A DNA stretch of 64,000 nt from a virus, in the IMG/VR virus record IMGVR_UViG_3300009551_000007, positions 1-64,000 of that record, one strand, 5' to 3'. This document shows positions 54,037-61,600 of the stretch, piece by piece (the first letter of the stretch is position 1; each line of letters starts with the position of its first letter). The position numbers were made by a program, and so were the translations under genes. The notes below the pieces were generated by a model. It saw only the letters and a list, made by a program, of their open reading frames with translations, was not told the origin of the DNA and searched no databases.

Positions 54037-54072
54037 AAACACCCCAGCATTAGCCGGGGTGTTTCGCTTTTA
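54037..54072. terminator. Intrinsic terminator between convergent genes
   Basis: AAACACCCC...GGGGTGTTT stem followed by CGCTTTT. Confidence 0.7.
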
Positions 54073-54900
54073 CCCCACATTCCACATTAGCATTTCGCCG
54101 GCGTACTCGCTACGGTGATTTATCAACCAGCGGAACGCCTTCAGGTCGTAATACTTGTTCGACGGCCACGCCGGGTCTCGCCCCGGCCTCGACTCGTCGC
54201 CGTAAGAGTACCCTTCGTCAATAATCGTCAAGTCGTCGTCCATTGAGTACCCGGACGAATCCGCCAGGTACTGGAGCAGTTCCTCGTGACTCCGCGAATA
54301 GCCCAAGTGGATAATGAACTTGGGTGGTGACCGTCCGATATCGTTGGCACGGTCGACGAACCCGCGAATCACCCCGGCGGCGATTGTACCCGACGACGCC
54401 GGCACTATCACGTAATCGGCGTAGGGGCAGCCGGTCACTTCCTTCGCGGTCTCGTCGACCGATTCGCTCAGCTTTAGGGCGTTGGGGATCATTACGCCGC
54501 CGCGCCCCAGCACGTCCTTCTTCGCCTGATGATAGAGCACGGCACTCATGCCGGCTTTTAGTGCGACGATTTCCGCGCCCAGTTCCGCCGATTTGAGCTG
54601 TGCCGGAAACGGTCCCTTCTCCTTCACGCGACTCGGATAGTAGTTCACGCATTTCTTACCGAGGAGCGAACAAGCGCGTGCGACCGCGTGGCCAGCTTGA
54701 GAGTGGTACGTGTCGAGGACGCCGATCACTTCCGCCTCCTGTTTCGCTACCCAAGCGTAGACGCCGCGCGCCTTGGAGAACGGTGGGCCTGGTGGGGGAC
54801 ACGCTAAGTCTTCGCGCTTCACCCAAAGCCCGAACGCCTCTCGGTGGTCCTCCACGGGCGTGTTACGATTGAGCATTCCGCGAGCCGTCCGAACCATCAT
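54070..54900 (-). CDS. PLP-dependent enzyme (fold type II), DNA hypermodification decarboxylase candidate
   Basis: LWVKREDL...FSKARG, VPASSGTIAAG, YYDLKA, WNVG. Confidence 0.85.
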   Translation of the reverse strand: MMVRTARGMLNRNTPVEDHREAFGLWVKREDLACPPPGPPFSKARGVYAWVAKQEAEVIGVLDTYHSQAGHAVARACSLLGKKCVNYYPSRVKEKGPFPAQLKSAELGAEIVALKAGMSAVLYHQAKKDVLGRGGVMIPNALKLSESVDETAKEVTGCPYADYVIVPASSGTIAAGVIRGFVDRANDIGRSPPKFIIHLGYSRSHEELLQYLADSSGYSMDDDLTIIDEGYSYGDESRPGRDPAWPSNKYYDLKAFRWLINHRSEYAGEMLMWNVG

Positions 54901-55103
54901 TAGATTTCCTCCGTCGATGCCGGGTAGAAACTATCGCCCTTGTCGTCGAGGACGCTGACGCCGACGACGGCATCGCATTCACATATGTAAAGCGTCATCT
55001 GTCGTCCGTTCGCGGAACACGACTCTTCCTTTGGCGTGTTCAACGAATCGTGGACGTTACTGTAACGGTATGTCTTACCGCAGTAAGGGCATTTCACTTC
55101 CAT
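54900..55103 (-). CDS. Small Zn-ribbon protein
   Basis: MEVKCPYCG...ICEC. Confidence 0.55.
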   Translation of the reverse strand: MEVKCPYCGKTYRYSNVHDSLNTPKEESCSANGRQMTLYICECDAVVGVSVLDDKGDSFYPASTEEI

Positions 55104-56083
55104 AACCCGCCTCGCTTTCCCGCTTTGATTAGTTCTTGTGACAGTGGGCACTTCGCGAACCGTAGGAGGGCGTTCCGCGCCGCTCTCACGTCCTCGCCGA
55201 TTTCGTAATGGCCCTTCGTGTATGAGTGCCATTTACATAATATCGTCTCCACTTCCTGCCCGTTGAGAGGCCTATCGTACCGAGGCGGCGCGAAGCCCGC
55301 TAACCGGCCGCGGAACTCGTCCACCTCTCGGTTGTCGACCTCCACTCTCGACATCTTAGGAATCACGTTTAGCGGTCGCTGGCTATAGACCTTAGTTCGC
55401 GGGCGTTCGTTGCTAGGCGGTGATGCTAAGTGTGTAAGAATGTCGTTAATCGCCCACTCGCCTACCGCGTCGCCGAACCCGTTCGACGGTTCACCGCACA
55501 CACTCCAGTGTAGCCGCGCCCCCTCCTGGGGAGAATCGTACATGACCGTGTGGGTGTCGAACGCGACCCGGCATAAGTCGAGGCGTTCGAGCATGTCCGC
55601 GACCTTGAAGGCGATCCACGGGCCGAACCCCACCCACGTTCTCACGTACCGGATAATGTCTTCGGCGCGGAGGATGCCGAGCGTGCTTTTCGCCGGCCCG
55701 CTATCGAAGTAGGAGAACAGGTTATCGACGCCTTGCGACCGGAGCCATTTCACCGACGCCTCCGCGTTCCGGCCGCGGAAGTGACGGCGTTCGGCGGAAC
55801 GGGGGAAGTCGGCATTGCCCTTCGATAGAGCCGCCGTCATCATCCGGTCGAAGAACGCCGATTCGACGTCATGAGGGTACGCCAGCGCCGACGCCGTACC
55901 CACGTGGTAAAAGCACCAGTAGGCGAGGAGCCACCGCTTGAGCTTGAACCTGTGATGACTGTCGCGTAAGGCGTCGGCTTTGATTGCCTCCCACGCCAAC
56001 ACGTAGATCGGGTCCAGGTCGTTCAGTCGGAGCAGTTCGCGGCCGAAGGCGTAGACCGTCATGCCGCCGGTCTCGGTACTCAC
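55094..56083 (-). CDS. Amino acid:DNA transferase (aGPT-pyrophosphorylase clade 2-like)
   Basis: DLDPIY, WLLAYWCFYHVG, ERRHFRG, GFGPWIAFKVADMLER, QEVETILCKW.S...GHY. Confidence 0.85.
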   Translation of the reverse strand: MSTETGGMTVYAFGRELLRLNDLDPIYVLAWEAIKADALRDSHHRFKLKRWLLAYWCFYHVGTASALAYPHDVESAFFDRMMTAALSKGNADFPRSAERRHFRGRNAEASVKWLRSQGVDNLFSYFDSGPAKSTLGILRAEDIIRYVRTWVGFGPWIAFKVADMLERLDLCRVAFDTHTVMYDSPQEGARLHWSVCGEPSNGFGDAVGEWAINDILTHLASPPSNERPRTKVYSQRPLNVIPKMSRVEVDNREVDEFRGRLAGFAPPRYDRPLNGQEVETILCKWHSYTKGHYEIGEDVRAARNALLRFAKCPLSQELIKAGKRGGLWK

Positions 56084-56313
56084 TTGCCGTCCTCCGCGAC
56101 CTTGATCTGGATAGGCCCAGGTGGCAGATCGGTGGTGCCGCCCGGCTTCAGTCCGACGAGTATGGCACGGTCGGCGGACCAGGCCAAGTACACGTGGCAT
56201 ATCGGGCACCGTCCGCCGACGGGTACGGACTTCACGAACCGGTCCGGTTCCATCTCGACGCGCTGCTTGCACACCGGACAGAATATGTTGACCTTGAATA
56301 GGGGCTGACTCAT
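56080..56313 (-). CDS. Small Zn-ribbon protein
   Basis: CPVC...CPIC. Confidence 0.6.
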   Translation of the reverse strand: MSQPLFKVNIFCPVCKQRVEMEPDRFVKSVPVGGRCPICHVYLAWSADRAILVGLKPGGTTDLPPGPIQIKVAEDGK

Positions 56314-58670
56314 TTCTTCACTCCGAGTTGAATGAGTTGGGTGGCGCGGCCCTTGCCTTCGCCGATGGGGATTTTCAGATCACGCATTTCGACCGCGTTC
56401 GCTTCGCCGGCCAGTTCGTCACCGCAGCGTGGCTTCCCGGCGTTGTCCTCGGAACAATGTAGACAGCCCGACGGCGGACACTCCTCGACCGGGCGGAACT
56501 GCTCGGCGTCGGAGGCACGCGTGAAGACCGGGACGGCGTGCCCGTGGCACTGGTCCGAGGTCGTGAAGTCGCGGGCGATACTGACGCCGGTCTTCGATAA
56601 CACCTTCCCGTCGGCGTCGCGGGCGTACTTGTACTCGTAGCATACCGAGTACGTGAGACCGTACTTGCGGGCGTAAGAGGAGTACATGCGGTGCGCCTTG
56701 AGGCGGTACTCCTCTTCCACCGTCCGCTGCGAACCGATGTTTTGCGTGAACAGTTTCTCGAACGCCGCGCCGCGTTCGCCGAACGTCTGTTTCATCCGCT
56801 CGACCATGGCCGGTGCTCAACTGTAGCCGGCCTCGACGAACTTGACTATGACGTGGTCCGCGCCGACCGCCCGGAGGCGCTGGAACAGTTTGACGATGTC
56901 GCCGTGCGACGTCACCCCAGGCACTATTGGGTTGACCTGAATCGAGACGTAGATGCCGGCGGTCTTCAGTCGCTCGATGTCGGCGTAATGGTCCTCCAGG
57001 CTCATGGCACCGGGCGAGAGGAGTTTCCAGTCTGCGGCGTCGCCCGTGTTGAGGGACTTTTGCGCGTAGGAGTACGGCGACAGCTTCAAGAGGTCCACGG
57101 CCCAGTCCGGGTAGCGGAGGCGCGACAGGAAGAACAAGGGCAGCCCGGCGTCGACGAACGCCTTCGCACCTTCCTCCGTATTGTGGTAATACTGTTCGAG
57201 AGGCGTGAACGGGTCGGTGAACGACGAGAAGTAGCCGGCCGCGCCCCGGCGCATTTTGGTGATCTGTTGTCGCACCTGGTCGCCGTAACCCAGCGGGACG
57301 GTAATTAGGCCGGTGCCCCTGTAGCCGCGCATACCGGAGTTGATATAACAATTGTGAACTAGAACGCCCCGCTGGAAGAAGTTTTGCGATTCGGTTTGGA
57401 TGTCGTGGACGCGAACTCGTCCCGGTATTTTTTCAACCCCGACGACGTAAGTATCCCCAATCTCTTTAGTGCCTTTTGGTCGAAAATTACCACGTGGTAT
57501 CCCATTAGTCTGGCTTGCTGAATTTTCCTCTCGCCGTCGGCAGTCATGTACCCTTTCACCTCGAATATACAGTTGTCGGGAGGGAGAACGAAGTCGGGCA
57601 CATATGCCGACCCGTCCGGCAACGAAATTGAAAACGGTTCGTAATCCCAATCGTACCCACGGCGGTCGAGGTACTCCGCGAGTAACCGTTCCCATCCCGA
57701 CCTCATTTGAAATGTGCGACCTTTTCTGTCCGTGAATAGGCCGCGCTTGGAATGTTTGTATCCCGATACGCCGTTCCTGACTCGTTCCGCTTGGGCTAAT
57801 CTCCATTCCGGGGATTTCGGCCCACTGGCCCTCTTGCTCATAGACTCTCTGTTCGCGAGAGCATGGGCGCTCATTCTCTGGCGCGTCTCCGTAGACTTGG
57901 GCTTCCCCTTGGTAGGCGACGACTTGCCCAACCTCTTCATGCCGTTCTCGGAGCGAATCACTAACAGGCAAGCATCGCAGACTTTCCTGTGGTTCGGTAT
58001 GACCGTATCGCATCGGCAGGCTTTCAAGGCGTTCTCCCGGTTTTAGGTTTACCGCGTTCACCCATGCTCGGCGGGAAACCGAGTATACCGGATGATCACC
58101 GGTCATTAATAGCTTCCGCCCGTCGTTCAAAATCAATCTCACCAACCCTTCCGGCTTCCAATGCGACGTTACCCCCACGACCTTAGTGATTTGTACGCCC
58201 AACGGCGTCCTGCCCAGTACCGAGTCGCCGACTTTGAAACTTTCTATCGGTGCCGAACCATTGGGGGTGTCGACCAGTTCACCAGCTGGTAAAGAGAACT
58301 TACAGCCTACCGCGCACCAACCGCCGTAGGGTTCAGTGAGAACGGCTTCGGTGAAACAAGGCCGCGGGCGGCTCGCGGCGCTCTCGTTGTGAAGACTCTG
58401 ATACCAACCTTGGAGTTCCTTACCCTTCTCAATTCTCATGTGAGGGTAGGGCTGGAGGTACGCGAGAACGGCCTTCTTGTCCTCGTCTTTGGCGTTGCGC
58501 ACCATACCGATACGCACATCACGGACCTTGGTGACGCCCAGGTACGGGTCGCTGATCACGCGAATCGGTCCCAGTTCCTCACGGGGTTCCTTAGTCATGA
58601 AGTAATGGTAGCGTTCGGCGGACACGTCGGATTCATCGGTCCGCCCCACCCAGTCGGTCTCGTTATTCAC
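56310..58670 (-). CDS. Radical SAM enzyme of the hypermodification cluster; contains an intein and an in-frame TGA at 56819-56817
   Basis: After intein removal the motif reads CAVGCKFC; FSSFTDPF; frame stays open past the TGA (YS*APAMVERM) into the Cys-rich ORF 56310-56807. Confidence 0.85.
57351..58295 (-). mobile_element. Intein (315 aa) in the radical SAM CxxxCxxC motif
   Basis: Block A SLPAGELVDTPNG...IESFKVGDSV, block B TGDHP, blocks F/G VHDIQTESQNFFQRGVLVHN followed by Cys. Confidence 0.93.
57359..58027 (-). CDS. PD-(D/E)xK endonuclease with NUMOD3-like DNA-binding segment, nested out of frame in the intein
   Basis: KGKPKSTETRQRMS, RSGWER...LD..GY.W.YEP...YVPDF...FEVKGY; GGGAG SD 6 nt before TTG. 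Confidence 0.88.
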   Translation of the reverse strand: MKACRCDTVIPNHRKVCDACLLVIRSENGMKRLGKSSPTKGKPKSTETRQRMSAHALANRESMSKRASGPKSPEWRLAQAERVRNGVSGYKHSKRGLFTDRKGRTFQMRSGWERLLAEYLDRRGYDWDYEPFSISLPDGSAYVPDFVLPPDNCIFEVKGYMTADGERKIQQARLMGYHVVIFDQKALKRLGILTSSGLKKYRDEFASTTSKPNRKTSSSGAF

Positions 58671-58980
58671 TGTCGGTCTCCTTGGATTGTTCTGAGTGCC
58701 ACTTGTAGAACGTCGCCAATTTGGCGTCGACGCGGCCCATGTAAGCCGCGTCGTTCAAGCCGTTAGCTTGTGTGAAAAACAGTACCGCCGCGTTGAGGTC
58801 AGCCAGTTCGGCCCGGAGGCCGTCGCGGAGGTCACCGTCCCAGTGCTTCGTGTCGCCGCCGGTCTGGAGGAGCTTGCCCAGTACCTGGAGGACTTCACCA
58901 CACTCCTCGATGAGCTTGGCCGTGCCGGGCCAGGTCTTCGACCCGAACGAAAACGGGTCACCGCAGTTGATCTGATCCAT
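58663..58980 (-). CDS. MazG-like protein
   Basis: KLIEECGEVLQVLGK...ELADL; GGGAG SD. Confidence 0.75.
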   Translation of the reverse strand: MDQINCGDPFSFGSKTWPGTAKLIEECGEVLQVLGKLLQTGGDTKHWDGDLRDGLRAELADLNAAVLFFTQANGLNDAAYMGRVDAKLATFYKWHSEQSKETDSE

Positions 58981-59080
58981 CGTCTCCCTCCCGTATCTGT
59001 CGCAGTTTCCAACCGGCCACCAGGCCAATGAGGAACGCGAACAGCATTCCGATTGCCACCGTGAGAACCGTGCTAGTCAT
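58958..59080 (-). CDS. Small membrane protein (40 aa, not in ORF track)
   Basis: MTSTVLTVAIGMLFAFLIGLVAGWKLRQIREGDDGSDQLR. Confidence 0.5.
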   Translation of the reverse strand: MTSTVLTVAIGMLFAFLIGLVAGWKLRQIREGDDGSDQLR

Positions 59081-59273
59081 CGTCGGCACTCCTCACGCTC
59101 GTGTCGTCGGCGATCTTTCGGACCGTTACCGTGACGACGTACTGGACGTTGTAAGAGTCAGTGAGGACACGCGCCAGTGCCGTCTCGATCTGCTCACCGA
59201 TACGCACGGCGGGCAGATACTCCTCGTCTGCGGTGACGAACGTCTTATCCATCAGCACATCGTTCGGACTCAT
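59073..59273 (-). CDS. Hypothetical protein
   Basis: MSPNDVL..., GGAGG SD. Confidence 0.5.
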   Translation of the reverse strand: MSPNDVLMDKTFVTADEEYLPAVRIGEQIETALARVLTDSYNVQYVVTVTVRKIADDTSVRSADDD

Positions 59274-59290
59274 AGTTCCCTCCAGAGAGT

Positions 59291-59947
59291 TTAGGCACGC
59301 ACTCGTGCCGTGAGTAGGTTGACGACTAGTTCCGGTAACTGGCGGGCGGAAGCGCGGCGGCACCATACGCCCGCTTCGGTCAATTTTACCCGCGCCCGCT
59401 CTATCGTATTGACCCGCTTAGTTGTATTCAAGTGGTTGAGTTCCTTTTCGTTTCCGGCTTCCTGTCGCCGCGCCTTGATCTGATCGAGACACTTATCGAC
59501 TGGCGTGTTGAGGAAGAAGCAGCGGACGTCGGACATTTGGAGTGTCCATTTTGTGTCCTCTGAGAGGAGTAGCCCCTCGGTTAGTACGACTCCCGCACCG
59601 CCGATTATGCGGCGGCATGTACAACCCTTCACGTCGCCGGCGTCAATCACGTCGTACACGGCGCGTGCCGAACCAATGTTGTCGCACCCGCCGCAGACCG
59701 CTTCGTAATGGCCGAGCACTATGATTCTAGGCGGGAAAATCGGTAGCCTGGAGTTACCTAGTTCCATGTCGTACTCGCGGAGGTAGTAGCCGAGTGGCTT
59801 CTTGCGCCCCTCGAACTCGACCAGCTTGCCGTTATCGACGCCGGCGTCAACGTAGAAGGGCACCCAATCGCTGCCGAGGAGTGACATTATGGACCTCATA
59901 GCCCAGGTCTTGCCTGATCCTGAGGTGCCGCGAATTTGCACGATCAT
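59291..59947 (-). CDS. P-loop kinase, probable 5-hydroxymethyluracil-DNA kinase
   Basis: IRGTSGSGKT, LGHYEAVCGGCD, EGLL, LNTP...C...I..RR. Confidence 0.85.
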   Translation of the reverse strand: MIVQIRGTSGSGKTWAMRSIMSLLGSDWVPFYVDAGVDNGKLVEFEGRKKPLGYYLREYDMELGNSRLPIFPPRIIVLGHYEAVCGGCDNIGSARAVYDVIDAGDVKGCTCRRIIGGAGVVLTEGLLLSEDTKWTLQMSDVRCFFLNTPVDKCLDQIKARRQEAGNEKELNHLNTTKRVNTIERARVKLTEAGVWCRRASARQLPELVVNLLTARVRA

Positions 59948-60627
59948 TAGCCCCTCCGAATGGTTCTCAGTTCGAGGTCGAGGCCGGCGATGGCCCGCCT
60001 CAAGTTTTCCTCGGTCAGTAAGCAGTTCAGTTCGCGGTACACGCCGCCCCTCGCGCCCGGCACCGGAACGAGTTTATCGGCCCACTCCATGCGGCGGTAA
60101 TCGCCCTTCCAGACGTTCCCCGACGACGTTTCATCCGTGACGCCCTGCTCGCTCGCCTGACCGTGAAACACGACCACGATGTCGACGTCGCTCGACAGAC
60201 CCGTTGCCGCCCAGTTGGTCGCTCGCGGATGCTTGATCTTCGGCGCGCGGACCAGTAGGCACCGGAGAAGGTACTCACCGAGCGTCACCGTCGCGAGGGT
60301 CTCACTCGCGTTGATATTCTCGTACCCCAATTCGGTCTTGGCTTTCGGCAGCGCCTTGGCGACTTCGGCGGCGAACATGAGGAAGACGTCGTTGCTCACT
60401 TTGGTCTCGTCCTTAGACCCGTCTCGCATGCGGCGGTACACTTCGACCTTGTCGACGCCGGCGTTATTGTAGAACACGGCCACTGCCTGGATATGCGCTT
60501 CGGAGAGGAGGCTACCGACGCCGGCGGGGACGGCAGCAGCAGACACAGGGCCTGCTATGTGAAAGTAAGCGCGGACCGGGTCGGGGTTCGTCCCCTCAGT
60601 GACATGTATTAGGTTCGGTTCGGACAT
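59947..60627 (-). CDS. Hypothetical protein
   Basis: 226 aa, coupled between transferase and kinase genes. Confidence 0.65.
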   Translation of the reverse strand: MSEPNLIHVTEGTNPDPVRAYFHIAGPVSAAAVPAGVGSLLSEAHIQAVAVFYNNAGVDKVEVYRRMRDGSKDETKVSNDVFLMFAAEVAKALPKAKTELGYENINASETLATVTLGEYLLRCLLVRAPKIKHPRATNWAATGLSSDVDIVVVFHGQASEQGVTDETSSGNVWKGDYRRMEWADKLVPVPGARGGVYRELNCLLTEENLRRAIAGLDLELRTIRRG

Positions 60628-60629
60628 TG

Positions 60630-61487
60630 TTAGACTCCTGGGTAACGGGATTTGGGCTTACCTTCGCTGTGGAGTGCGCGTTCGTACTTGTCGAACTCGC
60701 ATAGACAGTTCTGGTAGTCGTGGGCTTCGAGGCGCGAACTAATTGATTCGGGGAGCACTGAGCGTAACTGTTCGATGAGTTCGCGGAGGCGTTCCACGAA
60801 ATAGTCCTGATGGAAACCGGATTTTACCGGCAGTCCGAGGACGCGGTTCATTCCACGCGCACTGCCCGGCCCGACCGGTGCCCACCTGTTGTAATCGGAC
60901 CAGTAACCGTCCTTTGCCCAGCGGAGGTCCGCGACGACTTGCCCGGCCATGAACGAACCGAACCCGTACCGGCATACGAGCGCTTCGTGGGCGGCTTGCA
61001 TGGTGGACCCGTCGATGACCGGTGGGTCGGACAGGAGGTGTTCGAGGTAATAGTCGAACACGGAAGCGATCTTATCCTGACCGTCGTTACCTCGCACCAT
61101 GTATGCACCGTTGAATATCGTTACCCCTTGCCGTTTTACCGCGCGGAGGAGAGCGACTATGTCGTCAACTTGGGGGCCGCGAGAGTCGAATACGAGTTGG
61201 GTTATTCGGTCGAGGGACGACGGGAGGTTAATGAACCGCGCGACCGCCGCCGCGTACACGATACTGGGATGATCGAAATGGGGTTCGTACCAGTTGTTCC
61301 ATAGCCAGACGCTCACGGCGTCGTCCATACGCCGGACGTTGCAGAAGCGGTACTGCTGTAGTATCTCGTCGTCGGTCCAGGGCTTAGCTTCGCCCGCCAT
61401 ACGCTTCAAACGGACCGATTCCCGTTCGCGAATCCAGTATGCGAGACGGGCGAACGGGGACAGCTTACGGACGTCTTCGGTATTCAT
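60630..61487 (-). CDS. Amino acid:DNA transferase (aGPT-pyrophosphorylase clade 1-like)
   Basis: ERE...PWTDDEIL..YRFCNVRRMDD, GAYMV, GFGSFMAGQVVADL, GPGSARG, QNCLCEFDKYER. Confidence 0.88.
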   Translation of the reverse strand: MNTEDVRKLSPFARLAYWIRERESVRLKRMAGEAKPWTDDEILQQYRFCNVRRMDDAVSVWLWNNWYEPHFDHPSIVYAAAVARFINLPSSLDRITQLVFDSRGPQVDDIVALLRAVKRQGVTIFNGAYMVRGNDGQDKIASVFDYYLEHLLSDPPVIDGSTMQAAHEALVCRYGFGSFMAGQVVADLRWAKDGYWSDYNRWAPVGPGSARGMNRVLGLPVKSGFHQDYFVERLRELIEQLRSVLPESISSRLEAHDYQNCLCEFDKYERALHSEGKPKSRYPGV

Positions 61488-61600
61488 ATTTTCCTCATAG
61501 GGTAAAAGCCTTGCACTGGTCATAATCCCAGTCCTCGACTAGGGCCTGGAACCGGATGTGCGGGGGTAGGTCTTGAAACTTTAGGGCTATGGAGAGCCGC

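Follow-up and report, generated by a model that had tools for sequence, protein, structure and literature searches.

The 64,000 nucleotides of soil-phage DNA analysed here, called the window (positions 1 to 64,000 of IMG/VR virus record IMGVR_UViG_3300009551_000007, which has 81,752 bases with direct terminal repeats and is rated 100% complete), contain a gene for a radical S-adenosylmethionine (SAM) enzyme resembling gp53 of Pseudomonas phage M6. The gene is interrupted by an intein, and the greater part of the intein is overlapped on the same strand by a second open reading frame (ORF) that encodes a nuclease with a PD-(D/E)xK core. This is most probably a non-canonical mobile intein, in which a homing nuclease gene of the free-standing type occupies the usual endonuclease position and is read in the +1 frame. 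The reading frame of the radical SAM gene runs across the intein without a break.

The boundaries of the intein are fixed by alignment with the intein-less proteins of phages M6 and Pam3, which places the 315 inserted residues exactly between CxVGCxF and CY. The host frame reads ...GGWCAVGCKF/SLPAGE...TGDHPVYS...VLVHN/CYINSG, with slashes at the intein ends, so that the insertion splits the CxxxCxxC motif of the radical SAM enzyme (CxxxCxx/C) and Cys+1 is the third cluster ligand. Two IMG/VR phage contigs from other samples, L001 (GC 54%) and L002 (GC 61%), have the same intein at the same site, the same +1 nuclease ORF and an unbroken host frame, and the layout is thus present in all three of the intein-bearing loci for which DNA was examined. 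Ser1, the T65-G-D-H68 block, H314-N315 and Cys+1 are invariant in the three, and the coordinates and splicing residues agree with those given in an earlier note on this DNA. In a PDB search with a three-sequence profile, the NrdJ-1 intein is matched at 1.3e-7 over separate N- and C-terminal stretches, followed in the list by a bacterial intein-like domain, the RadA and CDC21 inteins, gp41-1 (0.025) and the DnaX mini-intein, and PT-HINT matches the intein at 0.0081. Removal of the insert as RNA, by a group I or group II intron, would be in keeping with the many families of homing nuclease that phage introns house. It is nevertheless extremely improbable, since the insert is in frame and kept free of stops by selection (see below), has Ser1, TxxH and HN/Cys+1, and resembles solved inteins at both ends.

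Between the splicing blocks, the intein frame resembles no domain, as the earlier note had claimed: the linker matches no family in Pfam, PHROGs or NCBIfam and gives no credible PDB profile match. Two database precursors, P0156 (829 amino acids) and P0157 (834 amino acids), known here as proteins alone, also have long unbroken linkers.

The nuclease ORF is offset by 1 from the intein frame and is closed by a TAG 8 nucleotides before the final intein base. Its identification as a 222-residue protein with a PD-(D/E)xK core, made by the earlier note from the letters, is borne out by matches to PHROG 9019 ('Holliday junction resolvase', 1.2e-13) and PHROG 945 ('endonuclease', 3.6e-12) and, with an eight-sequence profile, to T7 endonuclease I (1m0d, 2.6e-5), in which the RS.(W/L)E, PDF and E.KG motifs are aligned. 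E113, D145, E156 and K158 are invariant in all eight sequences. The AlphaFold model of the nuclease, with a mean predicted local distance difference test (pLDDT) score of 78.6 that rises to 88-94 over residues 101-190, shows a short N-terminal ribbon, helices at residues 46-84 and an alpha/beta core. A Foldseek comparison of this model with the PDB gave nothing at E <= 0.001. Its weaker rows, together with those of VIA-align, are almost all PD-(D/E)xK nucleases, including Bax1, VRR_NUC and Hjc; the Z scores, which are middling by the tool's own standard, are 7.8 for TnsA (root-mean-square deviation 6.6, 133 residues aligned), 7.0 for I-Bth0305I (3.0, 78 aligned) and 6.7 for Vsr (4.3, 89 aligned). 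T7 endonuclease I (PDB 1m0d, 1fzr, 2pfj), the best profile match of the core by sequence, is a weak match by structure (Foldseek rank 49) and differs in being a junction resolvase of about 149 amino acids that has neither zinc ribbon nor NUMOD3 modules.

The nuclease gene is single-copy in the phage but belongs to a large family, with 7244 representatives at E <= 0.001, 831 at <= 1e-10 and 16 at <= 1e-30. The more distant relatives on viral contigs are free-standing genes, with the same core placed between helix-turn-helix repeats, and in L003-L026 the other frames are closed; the spans that stay open there measure 5 to 121 codons. A relative at 43% identity, in an Actinomycetota metagenome-assembled genome, is likewise free-standing. 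When metagenomes and genomes were scanned with the nuclease profile, nothing but fragments and free-standing relatives came up, and megablast found no match to the locus among GenBank phages. Six relatives (P0001-P0006) share conserved 'STTS..' tails, and on this protein feature they may be nested ORFs as well. Another relative of the nuclease core, P0018 (265 amino acids), has a C-terminal extension (...NVKWVNPEHLAVGT...) that by eye resembles an HNH_3-type nuclease or a DNA-binding module; P0018 may be a two-module homing nuclease.

Selection on both frames can be read from the sequence of the overlap. A stop in the host frame requires a nuclease codon ending in T to be followed by a codon starting with AA, AG or GA. 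T-ending codons are never found in this position (0/65 in the window, 0/53 in L001 and 0/40 in L002), although elsewhere in the nuclease gene they make up 29/156, 44/169 and 29/157 codons, respectively. The strength of this avoidance was gauged by holding the nuclease protein fixed and either permuting its synonymous codons or drawing them from the codon usage of the contig, 20000 times each. For the window, 8.1 host-frame stops are expected and 0 observed, and the frame is open in 0/20000 permutations and 2/20000 draws. The corresponding figures for L001 are 10.5 expected, 0 observed, and open in 0/20000 and 0/20000; for L002 they are 4.9 expected, 0 observed, and open in 42/20000 and 70/20000. 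The third frame of the same strand has 14, 13 and 11 stops in window, L001 and L002. The earlier note was right that both frames are stop-free over the overlap; its chance estimate of about 1e-4 assumed a uniform base composition, and the figures above replace it, but its inference of selection for openness stands.

The pattern of substitution separates the two frames. The selection measures are pairwise among three sequences, and synonymous sites in the nuclease frame are saturated, so no ratio of nonsynonymous to synonymous substitution (dN/dS) is given for that frame. The nuclease proteins are 53-61% identical, and p-distances at codon positions 1, 2 and 3 of the nuclease frame are 0.34-0.41, 0.25-0.34 and 0.60-0.67. 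Read in the host frame, the same columns (the linker) are 24-31% identical, with an apparent dN/dS of 1.6-2.0 that is an artefact of the overlap. By comparison, identity is 66-69% in the exteins, 56-59% in the intein N-domain and 38-49% in the C-terminal 37 codons of the intein, where host-frame dN/dS is 0.25-0.37. Since substitutions follow the nuclease frame and the host frame is without stops, the nuclease frame is, on these comparisons, under purifying selection at the protein level, whilst the linker is constrained only to stay open, with no sign of amino-acid constraint. This per-frame comparison of homologous inteins, which the earlier note had suggested, extends stop avoidance and nuclease-frame constraint to L001 and L002, and its view of the linker as tolerated junk that is kept open fits all three loci.

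The nuclease ORF has translation signals of its own. A GGAG-type motif lies 6-9 nucleotides ahead of the start codon in all three loci, just before the first Cys of the ribbon, and the start is ATG in L001 and TTG in the other two. The GGGAG placed by the earlier note 6 nucleotides before the TTG, and the stop 8 nucleotides before the intein end, agree in coordinates with those found here. Reading upstream from the start, a stop closes the nuclease frame at 5 codons in the window and at 1 codon in L001, so that the open frames have 227 and 224 codons. It is because of this early closure that programmed +1 frameshifting, in which the nuclease would be made fused to the N-extein and to the N-terminal portion of the intein, is very unlikely. 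In the window, the Shine-Dalgarno-like motif a few bases upstream of a CTT codon is loosely like the prfB frameshift site, but the CTT context is not comparable in L001, whereas the start codon behind a GGAG motif is kept in all three loci; the commoner -1 slip would land in the third frame, with its 11-14 stops. Separate initiation of the nuclease at its own start is the best reading of these signals.

The intein is sporadic. It is absent from 20 of the 21 viral loci that have a homologous C-extein together with upstream DNA, the sole carrier being the L001 contig; one locus (L054) was left out of this count for want of upstream DNA. In 19 intein-less viral alleles the motif G[WYF]CxxGCx[FY] is present, with 0 residues between it and the C-extein, and in one further intein-less locus (L055) the motif pattern is unmatched. 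On an extein tree of 25 rows, the three intein alleles need 3 changes, with L002 grouped with M6 and Pam3 across a branch supported at 100/99. Besides one unrelated terminase intein, a profile scan with the intein N-domain recovered nothing but the contigs L001 and L002. No near-identical intein in diverged exteins was found, nor any mini-intein or in-frame-nuclease allele at the insertion site, the latter in word- or pattern-limited searches that do not show absence. The scattered distribution fits old transfers or many losses alike.

Several observations weigh against a mobile intein with a separately read nuclease. Profile scores fall short in both frames. In the intein frame, Pfam Intein_splicing (7.2e-8) gives 32.8 bits with a cut-off of 35.8, and the NCBIfam models TIGR01445 (0.019) and TIGR01443 (0.081) match weakly, below their cut-offs. 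In the nuclease frame, Phage_endo_I (PF05367; 1e-4) gives 22.4 bits with a gathering cut-off of 29.1 and NUMOD3 (PF07460; E 0.052) gives 13.9 bits with one of 20.4. The searches of both frames proposed by the earlier note thus find Hint matches, below cut-offs, in the intein frame and nuclease matches in the +1 frame; the NUMOD3-like segment that it described is retained as the predicted helices at residues 46-84, but not as a NUMOD3 match above threshold. Because the Pfam gathering threshold is not reached, the nested ORF is placed outside PF05367 proper, and it is classed as a PD-(D/E)xK nuclease with T7 endonuclease I as its nearest match. For the intein, the AlphaFold model, from a three-sequence alignment, is poor (mean pLDDT 34.8); it cannot show a Hint fold around the linker and is not used as evidence. 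No RNA run is listed as containing the stretch. The C-extein in the window record itself holds an in-frame TGA; the second assembly, however, reads TGG. Finally, divergence is about the same in the inteins as in the exteins (56-59% and 66-69% identity), so the comparison does not establish recent homing; the scatter could also come from losses in many lineages.

This similar divergence, together with the failure to find a near-identical intein in diverged exteins, would also suit an intein that is immobile and merely tolerated, with a nuclease ORF that is a dead relic or is otherwise used by the phage, perhaps as a junction resolvase resembling T7 endonuclease I. Among solved relatives, the one nearest in sequence is indeed a junction resolvase, and PHROG 9019 bears the name of one. 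However, the purifying selection on the nuclease frame and the invariant catalytic residues argue that the nuclease is not a relic, and the zinc ribbon, the NUMOD3-like modules and the helix-turn-helix repeats of its relatives are typical of homing nucleases. The gene also lies at the canonical endonuclease position of an intein that is missing from 20 of 21 homologous viral genes. Relic or resolvase is thus an unlikely account of the ORF, and a homing nuclease is preferred.

The in-frame TGA bears on whether the host gene is functional. It is the only separator of two window ORFs, of 617 amino acids (56817..58670, minus strand) and 165 amino acids (56310..56807, minus strand), which together are colinear from end to end with M6 gp53 (480 amino acids), the Pam3 homologue and the ORF of L001. 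The homologue in L001 is a single unbroken ORF of 799 amino acids. At the TGA, a conserved Trp codon, the window reads AGYS-stop-APAMVERM against AGYSWAPAMVERM in the alignment. In a Logan contig of 81,660 bases (depth 13.5), position 56817 reads C, giving TGG (Trp), and there is no other difference in 56300..58700; on this account the host radical SAM gene is most likely intact. Recoding of TGA as Trp by the phage was considered and rejected: TGA closes 19 of the 48 likely coding frames of the window, and the second assembly has TGG.

The doubtful base at 56817 also raises the question of assembly error in the intein. The earlier note had recognised that two compensating indels could mask an ordinary in-frame nuclease domain, and the window does come from a metagenome assembly with at least one doubtful base. 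Yet 0 indels are found over the 2401 bases of 56300..58700 in Logan's separate assembly, and the frame offset of 1 is common to three contigs from different samples at 53-61% identity. Moreover, the avoidance of T-ending codons is a signature of selection beyond what errors produce, and an in-frame reading would lose the C-terminal blocks of the intein because the nuclease ORF crosses them in the other frame. Such an artefact has next to no chance of being the explanation. This check rests on assembled contigs, not raw reads, and the run behind the Logan assembly (X1) is the probable source sample, hence not independent data. A 272-base contig of depth 2 from another study (run X2, a 2025 soil metagenome), identical over 57932..58203, across the nuclease start, likewise speaks against indels; this phage or element may therefore also be present beyond the rhizosphere sample from which the record came.

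Table 1. Location of the intein, the nested nuclease gene and neighbouring features in the window
Feature	Coordinates	Strand	Basis
Precursor gene of the radical SAM enzyme, similar to M6 gp53; annotation 'DNA repair photolyase'	56310..58670	-	one gene if 56817 is C, not T
N-extein, ending CAVGCKF, with the first two Cys of CxxxCxxC	58296..58670	-	alignment to intein-less proteins; motif in 19 intein-less alleles
Class-1 intein, 315 aa (amino acids), Ser1 ... TGDH ... VLVHN, then Cys+1	57351..58295	-	alignment, Pfam, PDB profile
Intein N-terminal splicing domain, about 93 aa	58016..58295	-	56-59% identity among three loci, 44 invariant columns; PT-HINT 0.0081
Shine-Dalgarno-like GGGAG, 6 nucleotides upstream of TTG start at 58027	58034..58038	-	GGAG-type motif upstream in all three loci
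Nuclease gene, 222 aa, +1 frame: N-terminal Cys-rich ribbon, NUMOD3-like helices, PD-(D/E)xK core	57359..58027	-	
Intein-frame linker, about 185 codons, stop-free, no family match	57462..58015	-	identity, dN/dS, stop counts
Nuclease catalytic core, residues 95-194: RSGWE ... VPDF ... EVKG	57446..57745	-	T7 endonuclease I alignment, invariant residues, pLDDT, PD-(D/E)xK fold matches
Intein C-terminal splicing blocks (...RVRVHDIQTESQNFFQRGVLVHN), overlapped by nuclease ORF tail	57351..57461	-	second aligned stretch of NrdJ-1; host-frame dN/dS 0.25-0.37
C-extein, beginning with the third Fe-S cysteine (CYINSG...)	56310..57350	-	alignment to intein-less proteins and alleles
In-frame TGA at conserved Trp codon; probable consensus error or minor variant of the IMG/VR record	56817..56819	-	alignment and second assembly
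PLP (pyridoxal phosphate)-dependent enzyme	54070..54930	-	Pfam match
Amino acid:DNA transferase	55094..56272	-	Pfam match
P-loop-like ORF, no Pfam match	59291..59947	-	
5-hmdU (5-hydroxymethyldeoxyuridine) DNA kinase	60630..61538	-	Pfam match

The genes around the radical SAM gene are, by their Pfam matches, a thymidine-hypermodification cluster of the M6 type (54070-61538, minus strand) in a window of 60% GC. The link of such a cluster to the M6 chemistry was reportedly made by Lee and colleagues in 2018. The NCBIfam model NF038136, 'intein-containing Rv2578c family radical SAM protein', matches 56817-58670 (minus strand) weakly across the intein region (6.9e-13, 48 bits with a cut-off of 700). 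The existence of this model means that inteins in the broad enzyme family are already catalogued, and bacterial relatives may carry them near the same motif.

The earlier note knew of no standard description of this architecture, but Gosselin et al. in 2025 and Phillips et al. in 2026 report out-of-frame intein endonucleases, and on the text of these preprints the architecture is already known and the element belongs to a kind that was reported recently. Gosselin, Arsenault and Gogarten (bioRxiv 10.1101/2025.01.02.630785) describe 63 non-canonical inteins in actinobacteriophages with the homing endonuclease in a separate reading frame, in DNA polymerase, minor capsid, terminase and thymidylate synthase exteins, and propose that inteins were invaded by free-standing nucleases. 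As in those inteins, the endonuclease here is flanked by the splicing blocks but read in a frame that neither intein nor exteins use, the linker has no recognisable structure, and the element is phage-borne and missed by annotation. The same-strand case in the main text is an endonuclease VII-like protein in 'frame 3', and the others are antisense LAGLIDADG or VSR-like, unlike the present nuclease, which combines a T7-endonuclease-I-like PD-(D/E)xK core and NUMOD3-like modules, is read in the +1 frame and sits in a radical SAM extein; 'radical sam' occurs 0 times in that main text. A high-GC phage terminase large subunit encountered in the searches (L031:494-3130, plus strand) has an intein (CFPDETL...LLVHN/C) with an open, junk-like linker, in the +1 frame of which a nested ORF (L031:1134-2144, plus strand) encodes a 336-residue HNH endonuclease (PHROG 1271, 5.5e-26); this intein resembles the type described in the Gosselin main text.

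Phillips, DeSimone and Gogarten (bioRxiv 10.64898/2026.09.14.751524) report a cyanobacterial dnaX intein with an out-of-frame LAGLIDADG endonuclease and a frame-specific omega, and credit the idea of an out-of-frame intein endonuclease to Gorbalenya 1998, which Gosselin et al. also cite. As far as that preprint describes it, the dnaX intein shares with the present one an overlapping same-strand ORF with its own Shine-Dalgarno sequence, a disordered linker in the intein frame and a sporadic distribution, and its low omega in the nuclease frame and inflated omega in the host frame are in line with the substitution pattern seen here. It differs in being cellular, in its LAGLIDADG nuclease and +2 ORF, and in the mini-intein alleles that coexist with it, whereas no mini-intein allele was found here.

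Two other arrangements are comparable. In one, the fractured genes, the host gene is reportedly broken into two ORFs, with splicing in trans, and the nuclease is said to be of a Vsr-like EDxHD type; the NrdJ-1 and gp41-1 inteins, which are among the closest solved inteins to the present one, presumably come from that work of Dassa and colleagues. Fractured genes share with this element a free-standing nuclease gene of restriction-endonuclease-like fold at the position of the intein endonuclease domain, but by the criterion for a fractured gene or split intein there are two ORFs, each with an intein half. Here the host frame is unbroken through the intein in all three loci and is kept open by selection, and the nuclease motif is E...PD...ExK. 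The published account has the endonuclease gene between the halves of split inteins (Dassa et al. 2009, PMC2677866). In the other arrangement, the insertion called ShiLan, in a phage DNA methylase, hides an out-of-frame HNH nuclease (PMC11855218; also PMC12613952). As described there, it too is an in-frame, stop-free insert in a phage gene that conceals an out-of-frame homing nuclease, but the insert could not be identified as an intein and the nuclease is HNH (PMC11855218). No paper on a PD-(D/E)xK or NUMOD3 nuclease overlapping an intein was found among the papers listed, judged by titles and the beginnings of abstracts, and the preprint supplements may list further nuclease types or exteins. 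Relative to the types encountered in the Gosselin and Phillips preprints, what is new here is the radical SAM extein and the T7-endonuclease-I-like nuclease, though supplements may add types.

From the arrangement of the two frames we infer splicing, separate translation and homing, as follows. Ribosomes in the host frame would make a precursor of about 786 amino acids, in which the Hint halves would fold with some 185 disordered linker residues enclosed between them and then splice, restoring the CxxxCxxC cluster site and hence the thymidine-hypermodification enzyme. Initiation at the TTG at 58027 would yield the 222-residue nuclease, with its predicted zinc ribbon, NUMOD3-like DNA-binding helices and T7-endonuclease-I-like PD-(D/E)xK core. 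In mixed infections the nuclease would cut intein-less alleles near the insertion site, and repair would copy the intein and the nuclease gene together. By analogy with the proposal that Gosselin et al. make for their cases, the likely origin is a mini-intein invaded by a free-standing homing nuclease gene.

The element would add a fourth nuclease type to the short published list of inteins with a separate, overlapping homing nuclease gene, and a new host gene for such inteins, a phage thymidine-hypermodification radical SAM enzyme interrupted at its third iron-sulphur (Fe-S) cysteine. It supports the repeated invasion of inteins by free-standing homing nucleases, in elements that are overlooked by annotation, and provides a clean example of a frame in which selection acts on nothing but the avoidance of stops. 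In such an intein, gene callers will present the linker as protein sequence and overlook the nuclease gene.

More tentatively, and with low confidence, the overlap could have consequences of its own. The start codon and Shine-Dalgarno sequence of the nuclease sit within a frame that is itself translated, so that the level of the nuclease could be set by ribosome traffic on the radical SAM message, and the long disordered linker could slow or condition splicing at the Fe-S cysteine; if so, thymidine hypermodification and homing would be coupled in time. Separately, the family, in which free-standing relatives stand at 43% identity and no in-frame form came to light, could offer a tractable snapshot of the first steps by which invading free-standing genes become the endonuclease domains of inteins.

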